Source: Escherichia coli
GTDB lineage: Bacteria; Pseudomonadota; Gammaproteobacteria; Enterobacterales; Enterobacteriaceae
Assembly: GCF_022846255.1 (NCBI RefSeq)
Contig: NZ_AP025682.1
DNA: 64,000 nucleotides
Strand: one strand, 5' to 3'
This document shows positions 2,991-16,710 of the stretch, piece after piece; the first letter of the stretch is position 1; each line of letters begins with the position of its first letter. The position numbers and the translations under genes are program-made. The notes beneath the pieces were generated by a model. That model searched no databases, was not told the origin of the DNA, and saw nothing but the letters and a program-made list of their open reading frames with translations.

Positions 2991-3200
2991 CTATTTTATC
3001 AAAATCATTATTGAAGTACCATCATTAATACCATCATAGGTATTGTTCTCCTTTGGCAACAGTTCTTTGATATCGAAATACTTTAACGAACTTTTTATGA
3101 CATCATACTTTGAAGAAAAAATCACATACTGATTTTCATCCAGTACATCTTGCAAGACAAGGTATAAAACAGGGACTACGATTAAAAATAGCAAAGTCAT
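2991..3200 (-). CDS. hypothetical small protein with N-terminal hydrophobic helix
   Basis: The ORF alone (69 aa, MTLLFLIVVPVLYLVLQ...). No recognisable family, and the region is very AT-rich. Confidence 0.2.
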   Translation of the reverse strand: MTLLFLIVVPVLYLVLQDVLDENQYVIFSSKYDVIKSSLKYFDIKELLPKENNTYDGINDGTSIMILIK

Positions 3201-3685
3201 TCACTAAATGAATTCAAAATCAGTGATGTTCTTATCTGCAAGAATATAATATATTTAAAAGATTATAAGCAATATATAAATAATAATATAGCTTTAAAAA
3301 AACACACATGAATTAGAAGTTAAATACATTAATTAAAGAAACAAATAAGTAAGAATTTTGTTTTTAAATAACTCATGCAAACGCATCGTTTATTTATATT
3401 AAAGGAAAATGATGAAATCCAATCTAAATTTAAATAGCTACATTACAAACGAATAGAAAAAGAAGCATTTTCCATGTTAAACTACTATCTTGGTGAAGAC
3501 AGGGGGTATAGCCTTCTGCGGTAGCCTACGCTCTTCGAATGCAAAGCAAGAAAATAACCTTTATAATCAAATTGTTATGCAATGCGCTTGTAGAGCAAAG
3601 GTATCTTAAACGAATAGGTTTAACAGTTAAAGCCTCTTTACATAGGCTGAACAAGGGCAGTACTTGAAAATGATAAAATTGGGGT

Positions 3686-5371
3686 ATGTTTAAAATTATG
3701 AATGCCCATAGTTTAGAGATGAGAAAAGAGTTAGGAGCATATTATACTCCAAGTGCTCTTAGTCAAGTGATGTCAGATTGGGCAATTAGAAGACCAACTG
3801 ATAAAATACTTGAGCCAAGTTTTGGAGGCTGTGGCTTTTTAGAAAGCTGTGAAAAGAGCCTCATGGAGATAGGCTGCATAAACCCAATGGAAAATTTATT
3901 TGGGGTTGATGTAGACCAAAAAGCCTTTGATACTCTCAAAAAAAAATATGGGCATTTATTAATAAAAAAACATTTCATTTTAAGTGATTTCATTAACGTA
4001 TTTCCAAAAGATTTTGGCATTGAAGATTTTGAGGTTATCATTGGGAACCCTCCTTATATCTCTATGCATAATATGAGTTATGAACAAAGGAAGTCCTGTG
4101 AAAAAGTTTTTGCTGACTCACCTTTTAAAACAAAAACATTAGGACGCAATGCAAGTCTTTGGGGGTTTTTCTTACTCCATGCATTAAGCTTCATTCGAGA
4201 AAATGGACGAATAGCGTGGGTATTACCGAGTAGTTTTTTAAATGCCTATTATGCGAAAGAGCTTATAAGAATTTACAAAAATCATTTTAACCATCTAAAA
4301 ATAATAAAGATAAATGAAAGACTTTTCAAAAATGAAGGTGCCGATGAAATGTCAGTACTTTTTTTATGCGATGAGTTTCACAGGACACCTATCAATAATG
4401 GATACGTTTCAATTGGATTTGCTGACACATTAAATGAACTAACCAGCATAATGACTGGAACTAAAGAAAACAAATTAAATAGCTCTGAAAATTACAAATA
4501 TAATATATTAGATATTGACACATTAAATGTGATATCGTCTATAACAGAACATAAGTACAGTTTAAAAATACAGGATATTGCTGATATAAAGATTGGGATG
4601 GTAACCGGCATGAACAACTTCTTTATATTGGATCAAAATCAAATTTTAAAACATAATTTAGACAATAAACATTTTAGACCAGTTATTTCACGATTTTCAC
4701 ATTTGAAGGGAATTCACCACACATTAAAAAGACATACGAAGTTAATTGCAGACAATAAAAAAGGATTGCTATTACACGTCAGTCCAGATGATTTATATGA
4801 AAAACATAGTCCGTTGAGAAAATATTTATCACAAGTTGATAGAAAAGAACGAGTCAAAAACCGCACATTCAAAAAACGAAAAAAGTGGTTTCAACCAGAT
4901 GATGGTATTTACCCAGACGCATTTTTTTCATATATGGTTCATGAGTTTCCCAGAATGATATTAAATAAAGGGAAAGTTAACTGCACTAACTCAATACATC
5001 GTATCTTTTTCAAAGATATAGCATCTAATAAATTAAAAAAAGCATGTTGCATATCTCTTTTATCAACATTTTCACAACTTTCTGCCGAACTTGAAGGTCG
5101 GTCATATGGCTCAGGTGTGCTAAAAATAGAGCCTACCGCAGGAAAGAACATATCATTCTTAATTAAAGATGATTTAATACACGAGTTAAGCAACTTAAGT
5201 AAAGAAATAGATCAATTGCTTTTAAATAATGAAACAAGCAATGCCACTGCTTTAGTTGATAAGTTTTTTGTTGATAAGGGACTAATTAGCTTAGATGAAT
5301 TGAAAAGTCTTAAAAAAGGGTTATTCAGATTAAGAAAAGATCGATATAAAGGGGTCAAAAATTATGAGTGA
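3686..5371 (+). CDS. N6-adenine DNA methyltransferase, gamma class (Eco57I/TaqI-like) with its own C-terminal target-recognition domain
   Basis: Motif order is GAYYTP (aa 17-22), then the AdoMet motif I EPSFGGCGF (aa 43-51), then the catalytic motif IV NPPY (aa 121-124). A C-terminal TaqI-like specificity signature is present: IKIGMVTGMNNFFIL. Confidence 0.85.
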   Translation: MFKIMNAHSLEMRKELGAYYTPSALSQVMSDWAIRRPTDKILEPSFGGCGFLESCEKSLMEIGCINPMENLFGVDVDQKAFDTLKKKYGHLLIKKHFILSDFINVFPKDFGIEDFEVIIGNPPYISMHNMSYEQRKSCEKVFADSPFKTKTLGRNASLWGFFLLHALSFIRENGRIAWVLPSSFLNAYYAKELIRIYKNHFNHLKIIKINERLFKNEGADEMSVLFLCDEFHRTPINNGYVSIGFADTLNELTSIMTGTKENKLNSSENYKYNILDIDTLNVISSITEHKYSLKIQDIADIKIGMVTGMNNFFILDQNQILKHNLDNKHFRPVISRFSHLKGIHHTLKRHTKLIADNKKGLLLHVSPDDLYEKHSPLRKYLSQVDRKERVKNRTFKKRKKWFQPDDGIYPDAFFSYMVHEFPRMILNKGKVNCTNSIHRIFFKDIASNKLKKACCISLLSTFSQLSAELEGRSYGSGVLKIEPTAGKNISFLIKDDLIHELSNLSKEIDQLLLNNETSNATALVDKFFVDKGLISLDELKSLKKGLFRLRKDRYKGVKNYE

Positions 5372-7673
5372 AGATATTCTTTTTTTGAAGGATAAGATGA
5401 AAGCCCTCCTGGATAATGAGGCTCTCGATTATGATAAAGTATTAGAAACAGCAGTAAAAATCACCGAAAAAGACAACAACAATATTAGATTTTCTGTAGA
5501 TGCGAATTTAGTTAGAAGATTAGGTGAGCAGTTAGTCGCTAAAAAAACTACTGCTGTCAGTGAATTGGTGAAAAATGCTTATGACGCAGATTCGACATTA
5601 GTAAATGTATATTTCGAATTGAACGAAGCAAATCCTCGAATAGTCATATTCGATGACGGCACAGGTATGTCAAAGGAAGATATTATCAATGGATTCATGC
5701 GAATAAGCACAAGTGAAAAAGAAGATAACTCTGTTTCAGAACGATATCAGAGACTAAGAGCAGGTAGAAAAGGTATTGGGCGTTTTTCTACACAGCGATT
5801 AGGAAATTATTTAAAAATAATTACCAAGCAAGAAAATGAAGAGTTAGGATATTTAATAGAAATTAACTGGCAGCAGTTTTCAAAAAAGAAAAATATATCC
5901 TTCATTGCTAACACTATCTCAAAAATCGATGTGGATTTCATTCATGGAACAAAAATAATAATAGAAGATCTGAATGATAAAGATTGGTCTGATGGGAACA
6001 TAAAAACGGCTTATAAATATATTAAGAGCATTATAAATATTGCCCCAAGCGAGACAGATCCAGGTTTCCAAGTAAAGTTCTATTATAAAAATGCCAATGG
6101 CTATGAATTAGTTGCAGATGAGAAAACTGAAATTTTTTCTGATAGTGATGCTCATATTACAGCAACACTTGAAAATGGAAATGCTGTAGTGAGAGTTAGC
6201 AGTGAAACCCTTGGCATAAAAAATGAAAGCATAGATGTATGGTATGATGAAAAAAATAACATACGAAAATTCTCACATATAAACTCTCCAGTAAAGCTTG
6301 ATGCATACTATTTCTCATTAGCAACAGTTAACTCCAGAAAACAAGCGGCATATTTACGTGAAAATGGCGGAATAAAAATCTATCGAAATGGATTCAAGGT
6401 TTCTCCTTATGGAGAGCAGTATGATGACTGGACGGCTCTTGATGACTCGGTTCGAAGGAGAAAGATATTACCCCCTCATGGTAATCAAAACTTCTTTGGA
6501 CACGTCAAAGTTGAAGACCTAAATGGAATAGACTTTGAAGAAACGTCCTCAAGGGAAGGTCTGATTCATACCGATGCCTTTCAAGAACTTCGCCTCTTTG
6601 TATATAAAGCACTGACGGCTGCGGTAATAAGAATTAGTGAAGCCAGAAATATAAAAATAAATCCAAATGACCGTAGCTATGTTAAAGAAACTAAACCAAC
6701 AATATCAGTCAAAGATAAATTAAATATTGTATCTGAAACGATAAGCTCGGTTAGTAAATTGGTAGATGCAGCAACATCTGTTGATGACGTTTCAAGTGAT
6801 GGTGTCATTAATAACATTGAAGATAAAAGTATAAGAAACAAAATTATTGAAGATCTCCATGAAGCCGCAGATGAGCTAAAACAAGCGAGTGTGATATCTC
6901 AATCTTTAATCGATGAAATTGAGCTTCTTAGAGTGCTTGGCGCTATGGGCCTTGCTATTGGTGAGTTTACACACGAAATAAATTTATCAATAACAAGTTT
7001 GAGTATTAACGTTCAAAACCTTAAACAGTCTAAATTATTAGAGGAAGATAGAGACTCTGCTCTAAATAGCCTTGAAAATAATATTGCAACATTAAAATCA
7101 TTTACTAAATTTTTTGACAGTACTATACGTGAGAATGTAAACAGAAATAAGAAAGTTATTGAGATAAGAGACTCTATTGAGCCATTTTATGAATCGATGA
7201 AACCAATAATAGAACGCAAAGGAATTCAGTTTGCAATACATTATGAAGGTTATGAACTTTTTACGAAGCCGATTCATGTTTCAGAGCTATATTCTGTATT
7301 TATAAATCTCTTTACGAATGCATATAAAGCAATACTTCGTTCTGGAACAAATCCACGAAAAATGTCTTTAACTGCGAAAAAAGATAGTGAAGATATAATT
7401 ATCCGATTCGAAGATAGCGGTGATGGAATTGAACCTGCAAATAGAGAAAGAGTTTTTGAGCCTTTCTATACAACAAGTACACCATCAGGACCTTTTGAAA
7501 GTGATGATTTATCATTAAAAGGAATGGGATTGGGGTTATCAATCGTACGTGATCTCGTTGAATCCATGTCTGCAGAAATATCTATAGTTGATGCATCCGA
7601 TGGTTTTACAACGTGCTTTGAGTTGAGAATTCCAAAAGCTGATGATAAGGAAATACCAGATGACATCTATTAA
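5364..7673 (+). CDS. double-GHKL protein: N-terminal MORC/MutL-like ATPase module + coiled region + C-terminal histidine-kinase core (H-box, N, G1, G2 boxes)
   Basis: N-terminal module: ELVKNAYDAD (N71, D74), DDGTGM (aa 97-102), GRKGIGRFS (aa 134-142). C-terminal module: IGEFTHEINLS (H537), INLFTNAYKA (N652), EDSGDGI (aa 683-689), GMGLGLSIV (aa 720-728). No predicted TM segment. The start overlaps the methyltransferase stop by 8 nt. Confidence 0.7.
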   Translation: MSEDILFLKDKMKALLDNEALDYDKVLETAVKITEKDNNNIRFSVDANLVRRLGEQLVAKKTTAVSELVKNAYDADSTLVNVYFELNEANPRIVIFDDGTGMSKEDIINGFMRISTSEKEDNSVSERYQRLRAGRKGIGRFSTQRLGNYLKIITKQENEELGYLIEINWQQFSKKKNISFIANTISKIDVDFIHGTKIIIEDLNDKDWSDGNIKTAYKYIKSIINIAPSETDPGFQVKFYYKNANGYELVADEKTEIFSDSDAHITATLENGNAVVRVSSETLGIKNESIDVWYDEKNNIRKFSHINSPVKLDAYYFSLATVNSRKQAAYLRENGGIKIYRNGFKVSPYGEQYDDWTALDDSVRRRKILPPHGNQNFFGHVKVEDLNGIDFEETSSREGLIHTDAFQELRLFVYKALTAAVIRISEARNIKINPNDRSYVKETKPTISVKDKLNIVSETISSVSKLVDAATSVDDVSSDGVINNIEDKSIRNKIIEDLHEAADELKQASVISQSLIDEIELLRVLGAMGLAIGEFTHEINLSITSLSINVQNLKQSKLLEEDRDSALNSLENNIATLKSFTKFFDSTIRENVNRNKKVIEIRDSIEPFYESMKPIIERKGIQFAIHYEGYELFTKPIHVSELYSVFINLFTNAYKAILRSGTNPRKMSLTAKKDSEDIIIRFEDSGDGIEPANRERVFEPFYTTSTPSGPFESDDLSLKGMGLGLSIVRDLVESMSAEISIVDASDGFTTCFELRIPKADDKEIPDDIY

Positions 7674-8763
7674 CCTACTTTATATCGATGATGATCAGCC
7701 TCAGCAAGTAAAGGGTTTAATTGAAGCAATAATCAGTAAAGCGAGTTTTGATTTAAATATAACTCATAAACCGCCGACGAAAATGAGTGAAATAGCCATA
7801 GAGTTGAGACAAGGTTATGATGGTATCATCATAGATCAAAAACTTGACAGCTTTGTTGAGGGAGTAGAACCAGTTGATTACTTTGGTGCCGCGTTAGCAC
7901 AAAATTTGCGAACACTCATGGCGGGTAAGTCAGATAATATATCTTATAAGCCAATAATTTTACTCTCTCTCGAAAGCTTATTAATTGAATATTATAATCC
8001 CGATTCAAGCTCGCATGATCTATTTGATTTAGTTTTGAGTAAAAGCATATTAGAACAACCAGAATTGTTAGAAAAAAAAGTTCACTTAATAAAATCTATT
8101 GTGAATGCTTACAAACGTGCACATTCGGAAGACTCGTTATATCAATTGCTTTCTCTGAGCAGTAATTATTCATTGCTTGATAAAAGATTTGAAATATATA
8201 TTTCTCAGTATGATAAAGATATACATAAGCTCGTCACATCCATACACTCCACACTTCTGAGAAGTAGTGGCATGTTAGTTTCTGAGATAACTTTGGCAAC
8301 CAGACTGGGTATTAATATTGAAGAATCGCCAGACTGGCACCAAGTAATTGGGCACCTTGAGGAATATAAATACAATGGCATATTCTCTGATTATTATAAA
8401 AGATGGTGGTGGGCAGATGTAGAGTTGTGGATAAATAAAAAGCTTAACTGCCCAATAATTAAAGGATTAACCTCAGAAAAAAGAGTGGAGATCATCAAAG
8501 AAAAACTTGGCTTAGAACGATTGATGCCAATTCATAGCGTACATCCAGGCCAAAGCACCAAGTTTTGGGTTAATTGTATCATCAGTAAAGAACCTCTTGA
8601 TACAATAGATGCTCTTCGTGCATCATCTATGGAATTAAAACCTTGGGAAGATGATAAATACCTTTCAATTAAAACAGTGTTAGAGAGACGGGCCGAAAAA
8701 TATAAAGTACATCCAGAAGATAGAACAAAATTGGATCGAATTCGGGCGAGGTTTAAATTATAA
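7660..8763 (+). CDS. receiver (REC)-like domain protein with uncharacterised ~230-aa C-terminal domain
   Basis: Numbering from the MTSINLLY start. The REC signature residues are in the right order: LLYIDDD (D10-12), GIIIDQKLD (D59), PIILLSL (S103), LVLSKS (K128). The C-terminal part (…YKRWWWADVELWINKK…) matches nothing I recognise. The ORF overlaps the upstream stop by 14 nt. An alternative start at 7642 is possible. Confidence 0.5.
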   Translation: MTSINLLYIDDDQPQQVKGLIEAIISKASFDLNITHKPPTKMSEIAIELRQGYDGIIIDQKLDSFVEGVEPVDYFGAALAQNLRTLMAGKSDNISYKPIILLSLESLLIEYYNPDSSSHDLFDLVLSKSILEQPELLEKKVHLIKSIVNAYKRAHSEDSLYQLLSLSSNYSLLDKRFEIYISQYDKDIHKLVTSIHSTLLRSSGMLVSEITLATRLGINIEESPDWHQVIGHLEEYKYNGIFSDYYKRWWWADVELWINKKLNCPIIKGLTSEKRVEIIKEKLGLERLMPIHSVHPGQSTKFWVNCIISKEPLDTIDALRASSMELKPWEDDKYLSIKTVLERRAEKYKVHPEDRTKLDRIRARFKL

Positions 8764-9506
8764 TGAACAATAATACAACTTTGTTAGACGATATGTGTAG
8801 GCTCAGGGACTTTTTATATGATAGCCGCATATGCCCAGATATTAATCCTCTCAACCGTTTAATCAGTAAACTTAATGCAAATCTCCACTCCGAAACAGGG
8901 GAGGACTTTGAATACTCTTTAGACGATTTAGTATTTTATCTTAGCGAAAAATCTGGAACAATTTGTCCGACCCAAATTACACCCAAAGAAAACCCTATTG
9001 AAATACATTTGGAACTTATATTAAAAAGTGAAGGCCCTTATGAATTTTCGAAGATTAAAGAACTTTCAGGGCAATTACGACTTAAAGCTGAGTGGATCAA
9101 TGACACAACAGAAAAAATTGAGATAAAAACATCACATAGTGCTTGGCATTTTGATTATCATGTTCCTCAAATGGGGGATGGCGTAAATTCATTTACTCAT
9201 CCTCAATTCCATTTACAAAATGGAGGAAACAGGCTGACTGATAATTTAAATGACTATGGAGAGTTAATGATTCTTGATGCTCCAAGACTACCTTTACCTC
9301 CTATGGATGTGATATTAGCCATTGACTTTATTATTTCAAATTTCTTTGGTTCTATTTGGCAACAAGCATTATGTGATTCAGAATACATTGATGTAGTTAA
9401 AAGAGCACAAAAAGCATGGTGGAAACCTTATTATGAAGGTATAAGTCAACACTGGTCTGGCAATGGCTCAGGAATATCCAATATCCTAATTCCAAACCTT
9501 CTGTAG
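8763..9506 (+). CDS. hypothetical protein, last gene of the operon (His-rich segment)
   Basis: ATG overlaps the upstream TAA (TAATG). 247 aa. Contains SAWHFDYHVPQMGDGVNSFTHPQFHLQNGG. No family recognised. Confidence 0.5.
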   Translation: MNNNTTLLDDMCRLRDFLYDSRICPDINPLNRLISKLNANLHSETGEDFEYSLDDLVFYLSEKSGTICPTQITPKENPIEIHLELILKSEGPYEFSKIKELSGQLRLKAEWINDTTEKIEIKTSHSAWHFDYHVPQMGDGVNSFTHPQFHLQNGGNRLTDNLNDYGELMILDAPRLPLPPMDVILAIDFIISNFFGSIWQQALCDSEYIDVVKRAQKAWWKPYYEGISQHWSGNGSGISNILIPNLL

Positions 9507-9716
9507 TGTATCAAAATCTGTTAACCATCTCCAATTACGAATAGCAATATTTATATAAAACTAATTTTTTATTTTAAACAACTTCAGCAAGGGCTAACTC
9601 TCAGCATCTCCTTCGGTGATACTTTGAGTTGCTCCTTGTTTTTTCGCCCTTTGGTTGAAAAAATTAAAAGCAAAACCAACCCTATACATTGACTTTTTCA
9701 GCATCTATCATATAAA

Positions 9717-9747
9717 TAAAATAAGCATAATGGACATGCTTATTTTA
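9717..9747. promoter_or_regulatory. 12-bp inverted repeat upstream of mobC (candidate oriT / mob promoter element)
   Basis: TAAAATAAGCAT-n7-ATGCTTATTTTA, about 25 nt before the mobC-like start. Location is typical for small-relaxase oriT, but no nic consensus was recognised. Confidence 0.3.
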
Positions 9748-9771
9748 CTTTACTATATGAAAGGAGTTCAT

Positions 9772-10185
9772 ATGAATGATAGGAATCATACTTTTAATAA
9801 GTTCGAGCCATTCAGAAGTTGTAGCTATGAAAATTTTACTTCTGCTAAAACACTCTCCCAGCAGACACGTTCTCATTGTATTAGTATCAGATTAAATGAT
9901 GCCGAGTTATCTTACGTTGATGGCTTACGAGAAGATCTCAACCGTGCTGTTTGGATACGTATGTCAGCATTGAATCGTCTCCCTTCCAAAATTCCTGAAA
10001 TAAATCTAATTGTCTGGAAAGACCTTGCCAAAGCATCTCAGAATCTGAATAACCTCGTTCAGCATCTCAACACTAAATCACACGATAGTCCTTTTACTAT
10101 CACCGAAATTTATACGGTACAAAAAAGAATAAAAGCACTAAGAGATGCCCTTCTGTCAGCAAATCGATCTGTCAGTGATAAATAA
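9772..10185 (+). CDS. MobC-like relaxosome accessory protein
   Basis: AAGGAG lies 6 nt upstream of the ATG at 9772. IRLNDAELSYVDGLRE... followed by a helical C-terminus is the usual MobC/ribbon-helix-helix pattern. The stop overlaps the relaxase start (TAATG). Confidence 0.6.
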   Translation: MNDRNHTFNKFEPFRSCSYENFTSAKTLSQQTRSHCISIRLNDAELSYVDGLREDLNRAVWIRMSALNRLPSKIPEINLIVWKDLAKASQNLNNLVQHLNTKSHDSPFTITEIYTVQKRIKALRDALLSANRSVSDK

Positions 10186-11372
10186 TGAAAGGGATGCAAA
10201 AAATCCGCAGAGGAAAGAGTTTTGCTGGTGTCGTCCTCTATGCGTTAAAGCCCGGTTCTCATCATAAAAAAGACCCTATCGTGATCGGTGGAAATATAAC
10301 GATAGTTGGCAATGCCGCTAAAGATCTGATCGCTGAATTTGATAGCACCAAACAGCTTCGCCCTGACGTGCAAAAGGCTGTTTGGCACAACTCGCTTCGC
10401 TTACCTAAAGGTGAATCACTAACGGCTAAACAGTGGTCTGAAATAGCAGATGATTACATGTCCCGCATGGGCTTCTCTGAAACGCATCTCAGATGCTACG
10501 TCCTACATGACGACGAAGATGGCCAGCACATCCATATCATCGCCAGCAGAGTGTCTCTTGATGCCGGAAAGCTCTACCTCGGCAGGAATGAGAACCTGGC
10601 AAGCACGAGAATAATTCAGCAACTTGAAAGAAATTACAATCTGACAAGAACCAAAGGGCCAGGAGCTAAAGCATCTACATCTTCTCTTTCCTCTAAACCG
10701 AAACATAAAAAATCACGTAATGAGGCTATGTTAGAGGAGAGAACTGGTGAACCATGCCCTAAATCCATCATCCAAAGGGCTATAGATTCGATAACATTAA
10801 ATCCTATAGCAATTGATGACTTCGTTGAAAAGCTGAATAGCATAGGGATTACGGCGAAAAGCAATATTTCTTCAACTGGCAAGATGAATGGATTTTCCTT
10901 TGAATGCAAAGGTGTTGTGTTCAAAGCTTCCCAGCTTGGCAAGAAGTATAGTTGGAAGAACCTGGAATCAATGATTTCAATGAATTACAACTCACACATT
11001 GGTGATGAAAAACCTGTCATCCCTGAACCTGCTGCCCATCGCAGCAACGAAGCTGTCATACCTATAGTGGAAGACTATTCTGATGAAAAGATTTACCCTG
11101 AGATAAGGGTACCCTTACCAAGACCTGACACAGCGCCCACAAAACCTACAAGCATGACAATGCGTTGGATCGCAACCATACCTTATCTTGTGAGTGTTAT
11201 TAGCGCACTTAAAACGATGCGTATCCCCTTTCTAAAGGCGTTCAATGGCCCAAGGAAGTTCTTTTCCGTGTCCATGATTCACCTGTCCTCTGTAAGCCTG
11301 AAACAGACCAAAACGAATAATTTCAAACCAAAAAGTTCCCACCAAAAGGCCCACAAGCCCCTTCTCCCCTGA
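10185..11372 (+). CDS. mobilisation relaxase (MobA/VirD2-type relaxase/nuclease domain)
   Basis: N-terminal FAGVVLYALKP (candidate catalytic Tyr). Conserved VWHNSLRLPKGESL block. Histidine triad YVLHDDEDGQHIHIIASRV. The C-terminal third is low-complexity and may be degenerate. Confidence 0.75.
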   Translation: MKGMQKIRRGKSFAGVVLYALKPGSHHKKDPIVIGGNITIVGNAAKDLIAEFDSTKQLRPDVQKAVWHNSLRLPKGESLTAKQWSEIADDYMSRMGFSETHLRCYVLHDDEDGQHIHIIASRVSLDAGKLYLGRNENLASTRIIQQLERNYNLTRTKGPGAKASTSSLSSKPKHKKSRNEAMLEERTGEPCPKSIIQRAIDSITLNPIAIDDFVEKLNSIGITAKSNISSTGKMNGFSFECKGVVFKASQLGKKYSWKNLESMISMNYNSHIGDEKPVIPEPAAHRSNEAVIPIVEDYSDEKIYPEIRVPLPRPDTAPTKPTSMTMRWIATIPYLVSVISALKTMRIPFLKAFNGPRKFFSVSMIHLSSVSLKQTKTNNFKPKSSHQKAHKPLLP

Positions 11373-11580
11373 TTTCTCCACAGATAAACGATCGTTATAA
11401 TCGATCGATTTATTTATATTGATAGTCAATAACAATCAATAGGTAAATAATCGATCGGTACAAGCAATTTGCTATGTCCTTAGAAGTGTTCAAAATGTAC
11501 TTTCATGCATAAATCGGATAATAGGTTGATTTTACTAGCCTATTTTTCTATCCACGTATCGAACATGCAGGGACTGAAGT

Positions 11581-12171
11581 ATGAGATATCTCATGATGAA
11601 GCGTGTAATGTTAGCAATCCTTCTTCCGTTTATTGTTGGATGTTTATTTGGTGCTAAAGCATTATCAGAGTATTGGGTTGTGTGGTTTTTTGTTTGTGCA
11701 ATGTTGATGATCACAGCCTGGGGCGTGTGGTTAAAAAATAAAAACAGAGGTTCCAGCTTCAGCTACCTGAATGATAATGAAGATGGTGTATTTATCTACA
11801 AATTTCATAATCAAGAGATGCGTTTAGATAAAGCCAAAAAAGAGCTTTATTTAAAAGATGGGTTAAACGAAAAAACCTACACTTTTTCCGATGTTGAAAG
11901 CTGGGAATATAAAATTAGCACAGGTGGTCAGATCCTCACTTCAGGTCTTAACCCTACAACTAACTTGATTAACAATAAGATTCTTGGTGAAAACATTAAT
12001 GACACCGGCTTCTTTATCAAAGTTAAAGACATCAGAAACCCTGAGTGGCATATTCGATTCTTCCCTCAAGAAGGATCTTATAAAGATCAGAGGGGATTAA
12101 TTAGCTTAAAAAAACAGATGATGCAGTGGATGACCGTTTTTGACTTAATCGTAAATGCTGATACAAAGTAA
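11581..12171 (+). CDS. hypothetical membrane protein (two N-terminal hydrophobic helices, possible lipobox IVGC)
   Basis: ORF with N-terminal MKRVMLAILLPFIVGCLFGAK and YWVVWFFVCAMLMITAWGVWL. The soluble C-terminal domain is unassigned. Confidence 0.45.
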   Translation: MRYLMMKRVMLAILLPFIVGCLFGAKALSEYWVVWFFVCAMLMITAWGVWLKNKNRGSSFSYLNDNEDGVFIYKFHNQEMRLDKAKKELYLKDGLNEKTYTFSDVESWEYKISTGGQILTSGLNPTTNLINNKILGENINDTGFFIKVKDIRNPEWHIRFFPQEGSYKDQRGLISLKKQMMQWMTVFDLIVNADTK

Positions 12172-12182
12172 GGAAAACAAGA

Positions 12183-12473
12183 ATGAAAAAAACCATGCTA
12201 CTATTATTAGCTTCAATGTCGCTGACAGGTTGCAACAGTGAACCATCCGATGCAGATATTTCAAAAGCCATGCAGAGCTTTATGAGTGAGATGCATGGTA
12301 CCCTGAACTCGTCTAAAAAACTTGCGTGTAAAGATATAGAGAGTGATGGCAGTTATCTCTGCTCTGTAGAGTTCGATGCTAAACTTCCAATCGTGGGCCA
12401 TAGAGAATCGACGCTAGAATTAAAGTTTATTAAATCCGATGACTCCTGGAAAGCAATGGCTCCATCTAAATAA
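12183..12473 (+). CDS. small lipoprotein
   Basis: AAGGAA SD. Signal peptide plus lipobox MKKTMLLLLASMSLTGC. Confidence 0.6.
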   Translation: MKKTMLLLLASMSLTGCNSEPSDADISKAMQSFMSEMHGTLNSSKKLACKDIESDGSYLCSVEFDAKLPIVGHRESTLELKFIKSDDSWKAMAPSK

Positions 12474-12566
12474 ACTTAATTATATTTGACAATAGAAAAA
12501 TAGTACGTCATAGATAGTAAATTGATAACAACCAGTGGGTTGAGCCACTGGCTGTTATCCCAATGG

Positions 12567-12644
12567 TTAATACACGGATGTACTAACCACCATTAAAAGG
12601 ATAAACAACATCACCTTTAATGCACGGGAGCGTTTTTTAGACAT
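12567..12644 (-). CDS. 25-aa basic/hydrophobic peptide (MSKKRSRALKVMLFILLMVVSTSVY), candidate small membrane toxin
   Basis: Below the ORF-track cutoff; found by hand. AAGAAGGAG sits 6-7 nt upstream of the ATG. The peptide has a charged N-terminus followed by one hydrophobic helix. Confidence 0.35.
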   Translation of the reverse strand: MSKKRSRALKVMLFILLMVVSTSVY

Positions 12645-12730
12645 ACGCCACTCCTTCTTTTTCATCATCAACCTTATTGTTGGTGATGTTGCCTCTTTGG
12701 GCTGATGCAGATTATCATTTTAGAATACTA

Positions 12731-12757
12731 AAAGCATCCTTTCGGATGCTTTTTTTC
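12731..12757 (+). terminator. rho-independent terminator
   Basis: AAAGCATCC-tttc-GGATGCTTT followed by TTTTT. Confidence 0.6.
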
Positions 12758-12850
12758 GCCTTGAAAATATTAGCAAGATAATAATCCATAAAGGATAATA
12801 TAAAAACCAAAATAATATGCTACGGTAGTTGTTATAAAAATCACATAAAA

Positions 12851-13273
12851 CTACAGTCCATATTTTTTCCTTTTATCCTTCATCAATAATTCTCTTTTTA
12901 GGGTAGAAGCCTCATGTTTCCTTCTCTCATTAATATAGACTTTTTCGGTTCTACTACCATTGCTCACAATGAAATTGATAAGTGAAGAGCATACGTTTTT
13001 CATACGCTCTTTATCGAGCATGTCATTTTCAATATTATTGATATTGCAGTAATAAGAAAGTAGTAAAAAATTCAACACTACTTCCCTGTTTGAGAACGTT
13101 AGTTTTTCTATTTCAGGCTGGTATTTAATGTAGAACCCGGCACAAAACAGGTATGATTGTTCGATAATTTGTTGCTCTGAGAAGTCTGATTCAGAGAGTT
13201 TATCAACGAATCGATCAAGTAGAAGAAGATACCTTTCCATCAAATGAATATTTATTTTTTCCATAACATGCAT
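12851..13273 (-). CDS. hypothetical protein
   Basis: ORF only. The likely start is the second ATG (13264, MEKINIH...), which has AAGGA 8 nt upstream. Confidence 0.4.
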   Translation of the reverse strand: MHVMEKINIHLMERYLLLLDRFVDKLSESDFSEQQIIEQSYLFCAGFYIKYQPEIEKLTFSNREVVLNFLLLSYYCNINNIENDMLDKERMKNVCSSLINFIVSNGSRTEKVYINERRKHEASTLKRELLMKDKRKKYGL

Positions 13274-13357
13274 CCTTGCAATTTATTTTGCCATCCTGAC
13301 AATTAAATAAATACCATAATTATTAATCACGTCAATAGTTAAAACCTATCTATTTTA

Positions 13358-13756
13358 TTAAAGGTATTTTGCAGGTAACGGATTATTAAGTTCTTCAATC
13401 GTTATTTGTTTAAGGTGAGCATTATAAAGCCATACTTTGAACTGCTCTAAATAGCGTTCATTTAATGCCTTCAAAGCCTCATTTTCTGCTTCAAGTCTTC
13501 TAATTCGTTGAGAAGCCACTTTTAAATTAGCAGGTTTTACAGTATGTATTGCACCAGATTTGATAGTGGCCTTTTTCACACTGAAGCTTTCTGCAATCCT
13601 TACATGACTACTTAAGGATTGTCTTGATGGTCTTTTCCCAATAATCCTTACTAACCTGTCGCACAAAGCATCCCAGGTTAGTTTTTCATCTATAGACCAT
13701 GTGTTAATAACATCTACAATCTTCTTCTCATGATAACCATTTATATGCTTAGCCAT
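13358..13756 (-). CDS. small accessory protein of the recombinase module (coiled-coil C-terminus; TnpC-like position)
   Basis: Its start directly abuts the stop of the upstream recombinase gene (13757). RRLEAENEALKALNERYLEQF is a heptad-like segment. The call is positional only. Confidence 0.4.
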   Translation of the reverse strand: MAKHINGYHEKKIVDVINTWSIDEKLTWDALCDRLVRIIGKRPSRQSLSSHVRIAESFSVKKATIKSGAIHTVKPANLKVASQRIRRLEAENEALKALNERYLEQFKVWLYNAHLKQITIEELNNPLPAKYL

Positions 13757-15388
13757 TTATTCTCCTTTTTTTATTCTCTTATGGAATTCATACCATCTAT
13801 CAGCATTTATGTTCCCATCATTTTTATCATACAGTGTTCTTTTTGAAATTTTATCGTGAATTTTTGAAATCGTTTCGTTATCTAAACCAGAATTCTCAAT
13901 CGGATAATGTTCACACGGCTTAAACGCATATGAGTGCTTGCAGTAGCCATGTTTTGATACCAGTACTGCACCACTACTAAGTGAATCAAACTCATTAAGA
14001 ACCACCACTGGAATATCCTTTATTCTGTGCTCATTAACACACACTGATAACTTTTGTTCTCTTATTGCTTTAGACATTTGAAGATGCGATCTGTGGTCAT
14101 AAGAAAAATTTTGAGAAATAAGCTTACGTCCAGACCAGCGAGCAATACTAAACTCATCCATACCATTTATTTGAGCAAAAGTGTTGAGAAGATGCCTCAG
14201 TTGATGTGTTCTTAGCAAATATGGGCTACCATCATCATTTATATAACCATGTCTTTTAAATACATTTAAATATCCTTTTATATAATCAGAATCAACGATA
14301 TCAGTTTTAAAAAAATTCGTTGTAGGTCTGAATAACTTATCTAACATTTCCTTTTTATTTTGATTTAACTGTCCTTCAGTTAACAAGCAAAGCGCATTAG
14401 AATATTTGATTTTCTTCTCTCTATCATACCAAAAGAGATCTGGAGGTATATTTTCTTTAAGGGTTCCCATCGTTGAATTAGAGTAATTCTTTTGAATTTC
14501 AGCAGCCAATAATCTCGCTTGACTTGATAATTCTTTTAATCTGCTAATAGCCTTTTTTGCTACAGGTATCATTAAAGTTGGAATCCATTTTATATTGCCT
14601 TCATACCCTTTTGCTGAAAAAAATCTTAAACCGTATCTTTGAATGCCCTTTCCATCACATTCTGTAATTTCACAATCCACTGGCAAAGCTAAAATTTCCG
14701 ATATCCTACTCGGTGCACACATAAGTAAAGCAAGCACAGATGTAGTAAATATATCTCTTGACGATAATTGTTCATCCCGCTTTGAAAAAATCTCAGCAAT
14801 CGCAATAACTGATTTGATATCAGGCAATCTAGAATGGCCTTCCAGTGAAGAATCATAACCAGTCCAAGACTGAGTAATCCTATACCTAATTGGACTTATC
14901 CAAAATAAATAAGATGAGTTAGTCATCCTATTATCATTTAAAAATGAACTCAATTTCTCAAGTTCTTTCCCAATAGCAAATGCATGTGCTTTAGAATACT
15001 TTTCAGAGGCTATCCTTATGCATTCATCAAAGATTGAATTGTTGCAATAGTTTACATTAGCTTCCATATTGATTTTAAGTAAAACGAATTCGACAATCTT
15101 CAACATTGATAATGTTGAGTGTTTCGTCTTAGATTTATTGAATGAATGCACATGCAACATATATGCTTTAGCAAAATTAATAAAGCTATCATCTAAGCAT
15201 TCTTTGCTGTTTAGGTTGTTTTTTGAGTTAAACTTAGTAAACCTATATAAACCTTTCCATTTATTGCTTTCCCAAGAAGTTGTTAAATTATTATTAGAAA
15301 TAGTACTCTTACAAAACTCGATGAACTTAATAACATTATCGTGAGGGTTGTTTTTATTGCTTGGTTCAAAAATAAATATATTGTTCAT
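13757..15388 (-). CDS. tyrosine recombinase, third of trio (543 aa)
   Basis: Catalytic signature in order: CAPSRISEILAL (Arg), THQLRHLLNT (HxxR), NFSYDHR (Tyr). Overlaps the upstream gene by 4 nt. Confidence 0.7.
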   Translation of the reverse strand: MNNIFIFEPSNKNNPHDNVIKFIEFCKSTISNNNLTTSWESNKWKGLYRFTKFNSKNNLNSKECLDDSFINFAKAYMLHVHSFNKSKTKHSTLSMLKIVEFVLLKINMEANVNYCNNSIFDECIRIASEKYSKAHAFAIGKELEKLSSFLNDNRMTNSSYLFWISPIRYRITQSWTGYDSSLEGHSRLPDIKSVIAIAEIFSKRDEQLSSRDIFTTSVLALLMCAPSRISEILALPVDCEITECDGKGIQRYGLRFFSAKGYEGNIKWIPTLMIPVAKKAISRLKELSSQARLLAAEIQKNYSNSTMGTLKENIPPDLFWYDREKKIKYSNALCLLTEGQLNQNKKEMLDKLFRPTTNFFKTDIVDSDYIKGYLNVFKRHGYINDDGSPYLLRTHQLRHLLNTFAQINGMDEFSIARWSGRKLISQNFSYDHRSHLQMSKAIREQKLSVCVNEHRIKDIPVVVLNEFDSLSSGAVLVSKHGYCKHSYAFKPCEHYPIENSGLDNETISKIHDKISKRTLYDKNDGNINADRWYEFHKRIKKGE

Positions 15389-16710
15389 AATGCTCTCCAG
15401 GGATTGAATTTTTTACACGTTAAGCATTTCAAATCCTCTTTCGTATCTTCTAATAAGAAAAATGCATCTGAAACATACTTGATAAAAAAGTTCTTGTTTT
15501 CTTCAATCTCTATGCCCATAAGTATATTAGATAAGGGGTTAAAAAACGCACTTAGTCTCTTATCGATGTCATAAACGTTGTCAGGATTGTTTTTTATATA
15601 TATCATAGAAGAGTTTACTGATTTATGATCTAAGGCTTTAGCAATCACCTCAATTGAGGCTCCTTCGTTAGCCAGTCGACTTCCTAACGTATATCTGAAT
15701 CTTCTAGCATTAAGTTCTATATAGCTGTTAGTCCTTTCTGACCTAACATCGAATTTTGACGGAAAGTGTTTTAATAGTTTTGACATAACTGAATTTTTCA
15801 TATGGAAAAAATCTGTTGTTAAATCAGATAAAAAATCCTCAATCCTTTTTGTTTCCGTAATCTTATCTAAATTCATGAAGATTGGTAATTCGCCTCTATA
15901 GTTATTAATCCCAACACTGAATTTATCTTCAACAAACGCCTGATTTTGATTAATTAGCATTGATAAACTGTCATATAAGAACGGTTCTATCATTACCATA
16001 TTAAATTCTTTTCTGAAACATTTTCTTTGTTTTACTTTTGGTACATTCAAAAAGCACCCTCTCTCATTTTTAATGAGATCTTTAGCTTTTAGAGATATCA
16101 ATTGTAATGGCCTTCTTCCTGTTATTGCCAGCAAAAGGATATAACAATACAAAAAGCATTGAATTTTCTTCTCATGATAAAATTTTCCAACGGCGTTAAT
16201 AATGTTATTGAATTCCGTTTCAGTTAAAGGTCCTTTATTTGGATCTCGTCTTTTAACTGCATCTCCTGTTTGGTTTGGAATGATTTTTATTTTCTCCAGC
16301 ATTCTAATGGCAGTCGCATCTACCCCAGGGTAATTGAGATTTTTCCATTTAGTGATGAAAGCCTTAATTGAGTTTAGTTTGTAGTTTCTTTCTGAACCTA
16401 AATAAACATTCAATTGATATATTGCTTTGTCATCAATAGTATCGATGGTCATTGCACCAAACCACTTATAAAATAGATTGTTAATATTTTGTATATAAAA
16501 AGAACTATATTCAGACGCATAGTAAGCTAATGTTTTTAAGTAGCTAAGTTTCATTTTTGTAGGCATTCTATCTACAACTTTATGAGGGTATACGCAGTTT
16601 TCTTTATCAAGTTGCCATTTCTTATCTGACAGTTTGAAACTATATCTATTCATCTTAGCAAAAAAAATTTGCTCACTTTCAATACATTTTATTTCCACAT
16701 TAAACCCCAC
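15385..16710 (-). CDS. tyrosine recombinase, second of trio (441 aa)
   Basis: ITGRRPLQLISLK (Arg), ARRFRYTLGSRLANEG (xxR box), VNSSMIYIKN (Tyr). Overlaps the upstream gene by 11 nt. Confidence 0.65.
   Translation of the reverse strand: MGFNVEIKCIESEQIFFAKMNRYSFKLSDKKWQLDKENCVYPHKVVDRMPTKMKLSYLKTLAYYASEYSSFYIQNINNLFYKWFGAMTIDTIDDKAIYQLNVYLGSERNYKLNSIKAFITKWKNLNYPGVDATAIRMLEKIKIIPNQTGDAVKRRDPNKGPLTETEFNNIINAVGKFYHEKKIQCFLYCYILLLAITGRRPLQLISLKAKDLIKNERGCFLNVPKVKQRKCFRKEFNMVMIEPFLYDSLSMLINQNQAFVEDKFSVGINNYRGELPIFMNLDKITETKRIEDFLSDLTTDFFHMKNSVMSKLLKHFPSKFDVRSERTNSYIELNARRFRYTLGSRLANEGASIEVIAKALDHKSVNSSMIYIKNNPDNVYDIDKRLSAFFNPLSNILMGIEIEENKNFFIKYVSDAFFLLEDTKEDLKCLTCKKFNPWRAL

Follow-up and report, generated by a model that had tools for sequence, protein, structure and literature searches.

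The gene at positions 8763 to 9506 of the 64,000-nucleotide (nt) stretch of Escherichia coli DNA analyzed here (contig NZ_AP025682.1, the window), hereafter T, was found to be the third gene of a conserved cassette, K-R-T, in which it follows the genes of a histidine kinase (K) and a receiver-domain protein (R) and which adjoins a DNA-modification module in most of the loci surveyed. We infer that T acts as the output enzyme, and probably as a nuclease, in a defense module that depends on DNA modification and is controlled by a phosphorelay, with K-R-T as the restriction-side partner of the DNA-modification module, and the probability of this reading was put at roughly 0.48. The features of T were the following:

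8763..9506, plus strand: T, 247 amino acids (aa), ATG start; third K-R-T subunit, candidate effector enzyme and remote relative of DUF2290.
9138..9227, plus strand: T core motif 1, residues 126-155, SAWHFDYH...THPQFHLQNGG, with the consensus (S/A)WH(L/F)DxH ... HPx(Y/F)HxxxGG.
9282..9341, plus strand: T core motif 2, residues 174-193, PRLPLPPMDVILAIDFIISN, with the consensus PRxxHPP(M/L)DxxLxxDFxLxNF.

For the locus survey, one genome per species was scanned, which gave 182 confirmed T relatives, and genes at the 80 best loci were labeled by means of profiles derived from the window and earlier loci. K and R lay directly 5' of T, in the same order and on the same strand, in all of the 77 loci with sufficient upstream DNA; two seeming exceptions to the order were overlaps produced by the calling of open reading frames (ORFs). 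A preliminary description of the window, made from the sequence alone, had named homologues lying mostly outside this operon as a finding that would speak against its view of T, and had proposed a co-occurrence analysis with the preceding genes. That analysis found the context kept in each of the 77 informative loci. The order K, R, T was also observed in all nine look-ups of distant T homologues, which covered metagenome and genome contexts. The loci belonged to Bacteroidota, Pseudomonadota, Desulfobacterota, Chloroflexota, Acidobacteriota and other phyla, and the gap between the stop of R and the start of T was mostly -23 to +11 nt. On one short contig (L052), R was also present on re-search.

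A DNA-modification module adjoined K-R-T in 73 of the 77 loci. The partner was an N6-adenine methyltransferase (N6-MTase) homologous to that of the window (M) in 41 loci, either upstream or downstream of the cassette, SspB-SspC-SspD in 30 and DndA-C-D-E with DndB in one; no modification module was recognized in four, two of them truncated. SspE also adjoined K-R-T in some loci. In one further locus of the 73, L012 (1459-6846; the arrangement was also noted in L013), the methyltransferase and K were fused in an ORF of 1,795 aa, which joins an MmeI/Eco57I-type methyltransferase to a GHKL-histidine kinase; genes for R and T, and then for a helicase (SNF2) and an ATPase (AAA_15), lie behind it. 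The type of partner was the same in nearest neighbors for T (69/70), R (71/72) and K (68/68). Since it tracks the phylogeny of the three proteins alike, switches of partner would be rare and old, and the three proteins co-inherited.

In about half of the Ssp-linked loci, an adjacent three-gene module was observed, which was not identified with a named system and whose products are a ResIII/SNF2 helicase of ~750 aa, an SMC-like ATPase of ~725 aa (AAA_23/AAA_15) and a ~160-195-aa protein without a family (L060:10384-15655; also L038, L044, L065, L070, L075, L086-L088 and L093). Additionally, K was ~947 aa long, with an extra N-terminal stretch of ~180 residues, in Mesorhizobium and Sphingobium (L027:5873-8722 and L032:4678-7518), where no methyltransferase or Ssp/Dnd genes were recognized nearby.

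The ORF and its coupling to the preceding gene, as first described, were borne out: the ATG of T shares one base (A) with the TAA stop of R (ttaTAATGaac, TAATG at 8761-8765), and the gene with identical coordinates in E. coli TUM11353 is annotated by PGAP as a "hypothetical protein". The absence of a recognizable family also held for the T sequence itself, for which nothing significant was found in Pfam, NCBIfam, PADLOC or PHROGs, the top match being DUF2290 (E 0.14), at 12 bits against the Pfam gathering threshold of 25 bits. The label of orphan, in contrast, had to be abandoned. A word-indexed search with the single T protein found only six relatives (Pantoea, Rahnella and metagenomes), and the same type of search with the T-family alignment as query gave 44 matches, to which a permissive rerun added none; an exhaustive HMMER profile search with the alignment of those relatives retrieved 780 T-family representatives at E<=1e-3; with the limit at E<=1e-10, the number was 489. 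Each representative stands for a 50%-identity cluster, and most of those listed are ~220-300 aa long. No match was obtained by tblastn of T against phages or in PDB sequence searches with T profiles, and tblastn against plasmids gave a single K-R-T locus, from Hymenobacter.

The histidine-rich core of T turned out to be a conserved set of His, Asp and Arg motifs, beyond what chance would give. Among 203 distinct T members, H129 and D131 were each kept in 200, H146 in 202, and P147, H150, G154 and G155 in all, with H133 kept in only 152. Motif 2 was conserved to a similar degree in the same members: R175 and P180 in 203, P174 in 202, D182 in 189 (with Glu in the other 14), D188 in 186 and N193 in 189. 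In an alignment of 125 T members, H146, P147, H150, G154, G155, P174, R175 and P180 were invariant and W128, H129, D131, D182, D188, F189, N193, Y208, W220, P222 and Y223 nearly so, and the N-terminal 120 residues were variable and poorly conserved. The invariant core was the same in the clades linked to N6-methyladenine (m6A) and to phosphorothioate. The five histidines counted earlier in the segment of residues 126-155 were found to be four (129, 133, 146 and 150), with H125 lying just upstream and not conserved. Residue 178 (window 9294-9296) was His in 153 of the 203 members (PRxxHPP); in the window protein and the enterobacterial proteins related to it, Leu takes this place (PRLPLPP). A possible resemblance of the HPxxHxxxGG stretch to the 'HxxPxxxGG' hairpin of HNH enzymes was considered and not adopted.

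With a deep alignment, AlphaFold gave a confident model of T, with a predicted local distance difference test score (pLDDT) of 91.1 and a predicted template modeling score (pTM) of 0.89; an earlier run on six sequences, with a pLDDT of 67, was not used. The model has a hairpin of helices at the N-terminus, a set of four long antiparallel strands with a fifth, short one, and a bundle of helices at the C-terminus, and the conserved His and Asp residues are placed at the end of strand 4, on strand 5 and in the loop preceding it. It is not a receiver domain. The Foldseek comparison proposed in the preliminary description matched no known fold, either in the PDB (best E 0.78) or in BFVD (best E 0.012, with a TM score of 0.14).

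The relationship of T to DUF2290 (PF10053) was established by comparing profiles. The profile-profile alignment (hhalign) had a probability of 90.4% and an E-value of 1.4e-6 over 98 columns, and covered HPxxHxxxG, R(I/L)P and the helix after it. PADLOC DUF2290 models matched 6 and 3 of the 125 T members (best E 5.4e-6), matches that were not recovered in a PADLOC scan of ten divergent T members, and with the Pfam model only one of the 125 reached E 2.6e-4, a bona fide member scoring 81 bits. On these comparisons T is a remote homologue of DUF2290 and, by the Pfam threshold, not a member of it. As reference, the protein of Bacillus cereus VD115 from the supplements of PMC9122126 was used together with six more from plasmids, and each of these six plasmid genes lay directly 3' of that of an ATP-binding protein of ~710 aa, the helicase of that system. 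R149, H162, H166, G170, R176 and P185 were invariant in the DUF2290 alignment, within the motif PIRFDFD...HPxSHLxxGQ...CRIPxSxPxTPxxFIxFILR.

Both T and DUF2290 measure ~220-250 aa, are always encoded by the downstream, tightly coupled gene of their operon and have a co-linear core of xD, HPxxHxxxG, R(I/L)P, a conserved Pro and an amphipathic helix. Motif 2 of T aligns with RIPxSxPxTPxxFIxFILR, and WHxD of T is plausibly the equivalent of the DUF2290 RFD, judged from the spacing outside the hhalign alignment. In contrast, DUF2290 has Arg at the position of His129 of the first T motif and GQ for GG, and the N-terminal halves do not align. The partners also differ, being a kinase, a receiver and a modification module for T and an SF1 helicase (UvrD/AAA_19-type) for DUF2290; no helicase was found directly upstream of T in the window, where K and R lie instead. 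DUF2290 is the non-helicase partner in the validated Helicase+DUF2290 anti-phage (anti-T7) system (Rousset et al., 2022, PMC9122126), which papers up to September 2026 treat as a named defense system only (PMC10952713, PMC11232893, 10.64898/2026.09.16.752016).

Nuclease genes were found in related operons. K homologues of ~25% identity on plasmids were surveyed for variants of the operon, and in plasmid pl192 of Bacillus sp. AR4-2 (L098:4992-10366) such a homologue (K') was accompanied by a 215-aa protein consisting of a REC domain only, an HNH endonuclease (PF01844, E 2.4e-7) and an N6-MTase. The HNH gene sits exactly at the operon position of T, and the two proteins have no similarity, which indicates a non-homologous replacement at this one position. 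In the Vibrio 'Kinase-methylase' system, the first gene listed is a GIY-YIG gene. In the published survey of related pairs, Vsr lies directly downstream of a receiver-like gene, and HNH_2 is represented best among the endonuclease domains nearby (PMC8011034).

Two other plasmid variants were observed. A Paraburkholderia plasmid (L097:8325-9002) carries genes for an S-adenosylmethionine-dependent methyltransferase, K, a 355-aa protein and then a 225-aa protein with a T/DUF2290-like core, GIHYDYE...AAHPIFHAQLG...VRIP. Its hhalign match to T was weak (E 1.4e-3, probability 18%), and it may be an intermediate branch of a T/DUF2290 superfamily. On the pTet plasmids of Campylobacter jejuni (L096:4989-9419), a K homologue is accompanied by a response regulator of 331 aa and by a dcm methyltransferase gene in convergent orientation, without a third gene; these are conjugative tetracycline-resistance plasmids, and Campylobacter accounted for 41 of the 112 plasmid matches.

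In the window, the reading frames of M, K, R and T overlap or abut and form a four-gene operon of 5.8 kb. The three genes preceding T were the following:

3686..5371, plus strand: M, a 561-aa Eco57I-like (gamma-class, NPPY) N6-adenine DNA methyltransferase, the modification partner of the cassette.
5364..7673, plus strand: K, a 769-aa fusion in which a GHKL ATPase of the paraMORC/MutL-like type at the N-terminus is followed by a middle domain and then by a complete histidine-kinase core (H-box His537 and CA domain).
7642..8763, plus strand: R, a 373-aa receiver-domain protein (PGAP start at 7660) with a conserved helix-turn-helix (HTH)-like C-terminal domain.

M matched N6_Mtase (6e-16), Eco57I (5e-14) and M_Eco57I_C (4e-19) in Pfam and MTase_II (2e-89) in PADLOC. 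In K, HATPase_c_3 (3e-27, residues 63-187) and HATPase_c (1e-25, residues 641-759) were matched, and HEF_HK stayed below its cut-off (1e-3, 19.8 bits against 24.1). Among 71 homologues of K, the Bergerat motifs of the GHKL domain (E67, N71, D74, D97xGxG and G134xxGxG) and the kinase motifs (the H-box H537-E538, N648/N652, D684xGxG and G720xGxG, so that the N, G1, F and G2 boxes are kept) were at least 90% conserved. In the PDB, the sequence of K was matched only by histidine kinases of a generic kind (HK853, CpxA) and by the N-terminus of MutL, and a sequence search revealed no PDB structure of a K-R-T system.

The receiver signature of R was intact as well, with D65 invariant and D16, D17, S109 and K134 at least 90% conserved among 57 homologues. 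Pfam gave no match for the window protein and only weak REC/iREC matches among these homologues, none of them (0/57) to Response_reg_2 (PF19192), and the R profile had no match among PDB sequences. In the C-terminal domain, L212, G223, G246, W256, C312 and W335 were invariant and an HTH-like 'LAARLG' stretch was present, with no invariant acidic or His residues; lacking conserved residues of the catalytic type, R does not look like an enzyme. The start of R was ambiguous, since the longest ORF (7642) overlaps K by 32 nt and the PGAP start (7660) by 14 nt. Because the H-box and kinase boxes of K and the receiver signature of R are all intact, phosphotransfer from His537 to Asp65 is well supported as a prediction.

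These observations would fit the following course of events. DNA without the mark of the host would be detected by the GHKL/clamp part of K, acting with the modification enzyme; K would then autophosphorylate at His537 and pass the phosphate to Asp65 of R, and phosphorylated R would release or activate T. T would damage nucleic acid through a probably metal-binding site (H129, D131, H146, H150 and R175) and so stop the phage or the infected cell. Protection of self DNA by the methyltransferase would keep the relay silent.

The preliminary description had suggested that T might be the missing effector, a nuclease or hydrolase. The effector part of that suggestion is the one best supported by the context, because T is the only protein of the cassette without an assigned signaling role and carries the invariant His/Asp/Arg set, and because it has a remote homologue in DUF2290 and a nuclease gene of the HNH, GIY-YIG or Vsr type is found in related operons. 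The enzymatic part, nuclease or hydrolase, is still conjectural, as T shows no known nuclease fold or motif; among the folds considered (HNH/His-Me, PD-(D/E)xK, GIY-YIG, PLD and Vsr), none was matched by profile or structure. An immune role of K-R-T is supported by its setting in defense islands and by the adjacency of SspE in some loci.

Several points weigh against this reading. DUF2290 itself has no assigned biochemical activity. The middle domain of K has conserved acidic residues (E351, D355, D385, E393 and E398) and could thus conceivably be catalytic as well as T, and the HTH-like C-terminus of R would also fit a transcriptional output. The 80 loci of the survey were picked by two T motifs and by similarity rank, a sample that is broad and not unbiased. 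Finally, T stood without R or K at a single locus (L023:1033-1851), where the contig extends 1 kb further upstream and an ORF on the opposite strand was found in that stretch.

An unlikely reading, although the best placed of the rivals, is that T is a regulatory or adaptor subunit, either a phospho-Asp phosphatase or buffer for R or a scaffold for K and R, with the damage done by another part such as the middle domain of K or by a gene elsewhere. The conserved His/Asp/Arg set would suit a phosphatase, and both the missing nuclease fold and the acidic residues of the K middle domain fit this possibility. In Detocs, histidine kinase and receiver proteins serve anti-phage signaling with a separate output, and a buffering component is needed; the system consists of the kinase DtcA, the receiver-only buffer DtcB and the receiver-effector DtcC, and is not known to have a DNA-modification partner or a GHKL N-terminal domain. 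T is not a receiver domain. No PADLOC family matched R or T, and the matches of K did not include a Detocs model (the Detocs content of the release being unverified). Moreover, DUF2290 works with a helicase and without kinase or receiver, so that a specificity of the conserved T core for phosphorelay chemistry is excluded, and real nuclease genes occur in related operons, that of the Bacillus plasmid at the very position of T.

It is improbable that K-R-T is instead a signaling system that controls how the adjacent modification genes are expressed or how active they are, an epigenetic control in which T would be an accessory and which would not be immune in nature. A regulatory role has been proposed for the related HEF_HK/Response_reg_2 pair (PMC8011034), the 'LAARLG' stretch of R would be in keeping with such a role, and a scan of ORFs and Pfam found no classical restriction enzyme in the operon of the window. 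Nevertheless, K-R-T occurs in defense and mobile islands, the modification systems to which it is coupled are of three chemically distinct kinds, nucleases are encoded in related operons, and T is homologous, by profile comparison, to a component of a validated defense system.

More improbable still would be a function of T as a reader or specificity subunit for the modification state or the target DNA. The variable N-terminal 120 residues and the tracking of partner type by T (69/70) would agree with it. However, K and R track the partner equally, so that the tracking reflects co-inheritance, the invariant core is identical across the m6A- and phosphorothioate-linked clades, and DUF2290 systems need no modification gene. 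A histidine phosphotransfer (Hpt)-like protein or buffer, the other role suggested in the preliminary description, would suit the several conserved His and the operon with kinase and receiver, but as an Hpt-like member of the relay T is very improbable: no Hpt match was found in Pfam, the model is a meander of antiparallel strands with helices on its flanks, a beta-sheet domain whose strands and loops, and not a four-helix bundle, bear the conserved His, DUF2290 relatives occur without a kinase, and the step from K to R needs no intermediate because the H-box and the receiver Asp are both intact.

The proposal that T is an effector was also considered against the systems already described. The pairing of a kinase and a receiver with restriction-modification (R-M) systems is already published, as a prediction: a link of the HEF_HK/Response_reg_2 two-component-like pair with both R-M systems and paraMORC ATPases was described by Bellieny-Rabelo et al. 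(2021, PMC8011034; background in PMC2292703). K resembles that system in its HATPase_c_3 domain, DHp-like H-box and HATPase_c domain, in adjoining a receiver-like gene and in its link to a DNA methyltransferase. It differs in that HEF_HK scored below the cut-off and R lacks Response_reg_2; moreover, the partner of K-R-T is an N6-adenine methyltransferase or phosphorothioation, whereas that of the HEF_HK system is mostly a C5-methyltransferase, and a third gene like T was not described for the latter (PMC8011034). Predicted, unvalidated defense systems with HATPase and REC domains are listed in a figure legend of 2026 (PMC13092281). Experiments on K-R-T or T were not found in the literature searched, and T as the third gene that never varies, the relation of T to DUF2290, a model of T without structural precedent and the pairing with both phosphorothioation and adenine methylation appear to be previously undescribed.

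K-R-T resembles DndFGH, SspE and SspFGH in that it occupies the place beside sspBCD or dndCDE in 31 of the 77 loci, sometimes together with SspE. By analogy with these Dnd/Ssp restriction modules, K-R-T may act on DNA lacking the mark. It is unrelated to them in sequence, given the DUF262/DUF1524 domains of SspE, the Walker A motif of SspF and the FtsK-like SspH (PMC8092258), and, unlike them, it contains a His-Asp relay and pairs with methylation too. An identity of K-R-T with SspE, SspFGH or DndFGH was rejected, since K, R and T showed no such homology in PADLOC or Pfam (SspFGH features as in PMC8092258). Two further candidates were discarded: MADS, as M scored 24 bits against 720 for the MAD2 equivalog and no other MADS family was matched (NCBIfam), and the restriction enzyme BbrUII/HgiDII, as K matched only the N-terminal 170 positions of the profile, with 96 bits against a cut-off of 550.

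It is conceivable, though rather doubtful, that K-R-T represents a new class of modification-dependent immunity, in which the mark is m6A or an Ssp- or Dnd-phosphorothioate and a His-Asp relay driven by a MORC-like DNA clamp links the detection of unmarked DNA to a separate effector, with T and DUF2290 forming a new enzyme fold of nuclease or other toxic activity. If so, K-R-T would be the first restriction-like system to join self/non-self sensing to an effector by phosphotransfer, and the T/DUF2290 enzyme fold would be common to two otherwise unrelated defense systems. As 83.9% of sspBCD clusters have no known restriction partner (PMC8092258), K-R-T is a concrete and widespread candidate for the missing partner of sspBCD, one that also pairs with adenine methylation. 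The link between T and DUF2290 additionally offers two independent systems for finding the activity of a family whose confident model is structurally unprecedented. Being small (5.8 kb) and in a tractable host, the E. coli operon is directly testable.

With respect to the genomic setting, the chromosome of E. coli TUM11353 was 99.8% identical to positions 3000-10000 of the window, and the operon was present in one of 5,426 complete E. coli genomes. In TUM11353 it lies in a tRNA-Leu island with a type I R-M system, an AbiEii toxin, an HNH endonuclease, a relaxase and three integrases. Its G+C content was 31-35%, compared with 44-49% to its left. On the 3' side of the operon (window 9655-16710), a small ORF and a MOB relaxase (10185-11372) were observed, together with a DNA-binding protein and tyrosine recombinases on the minus strand.

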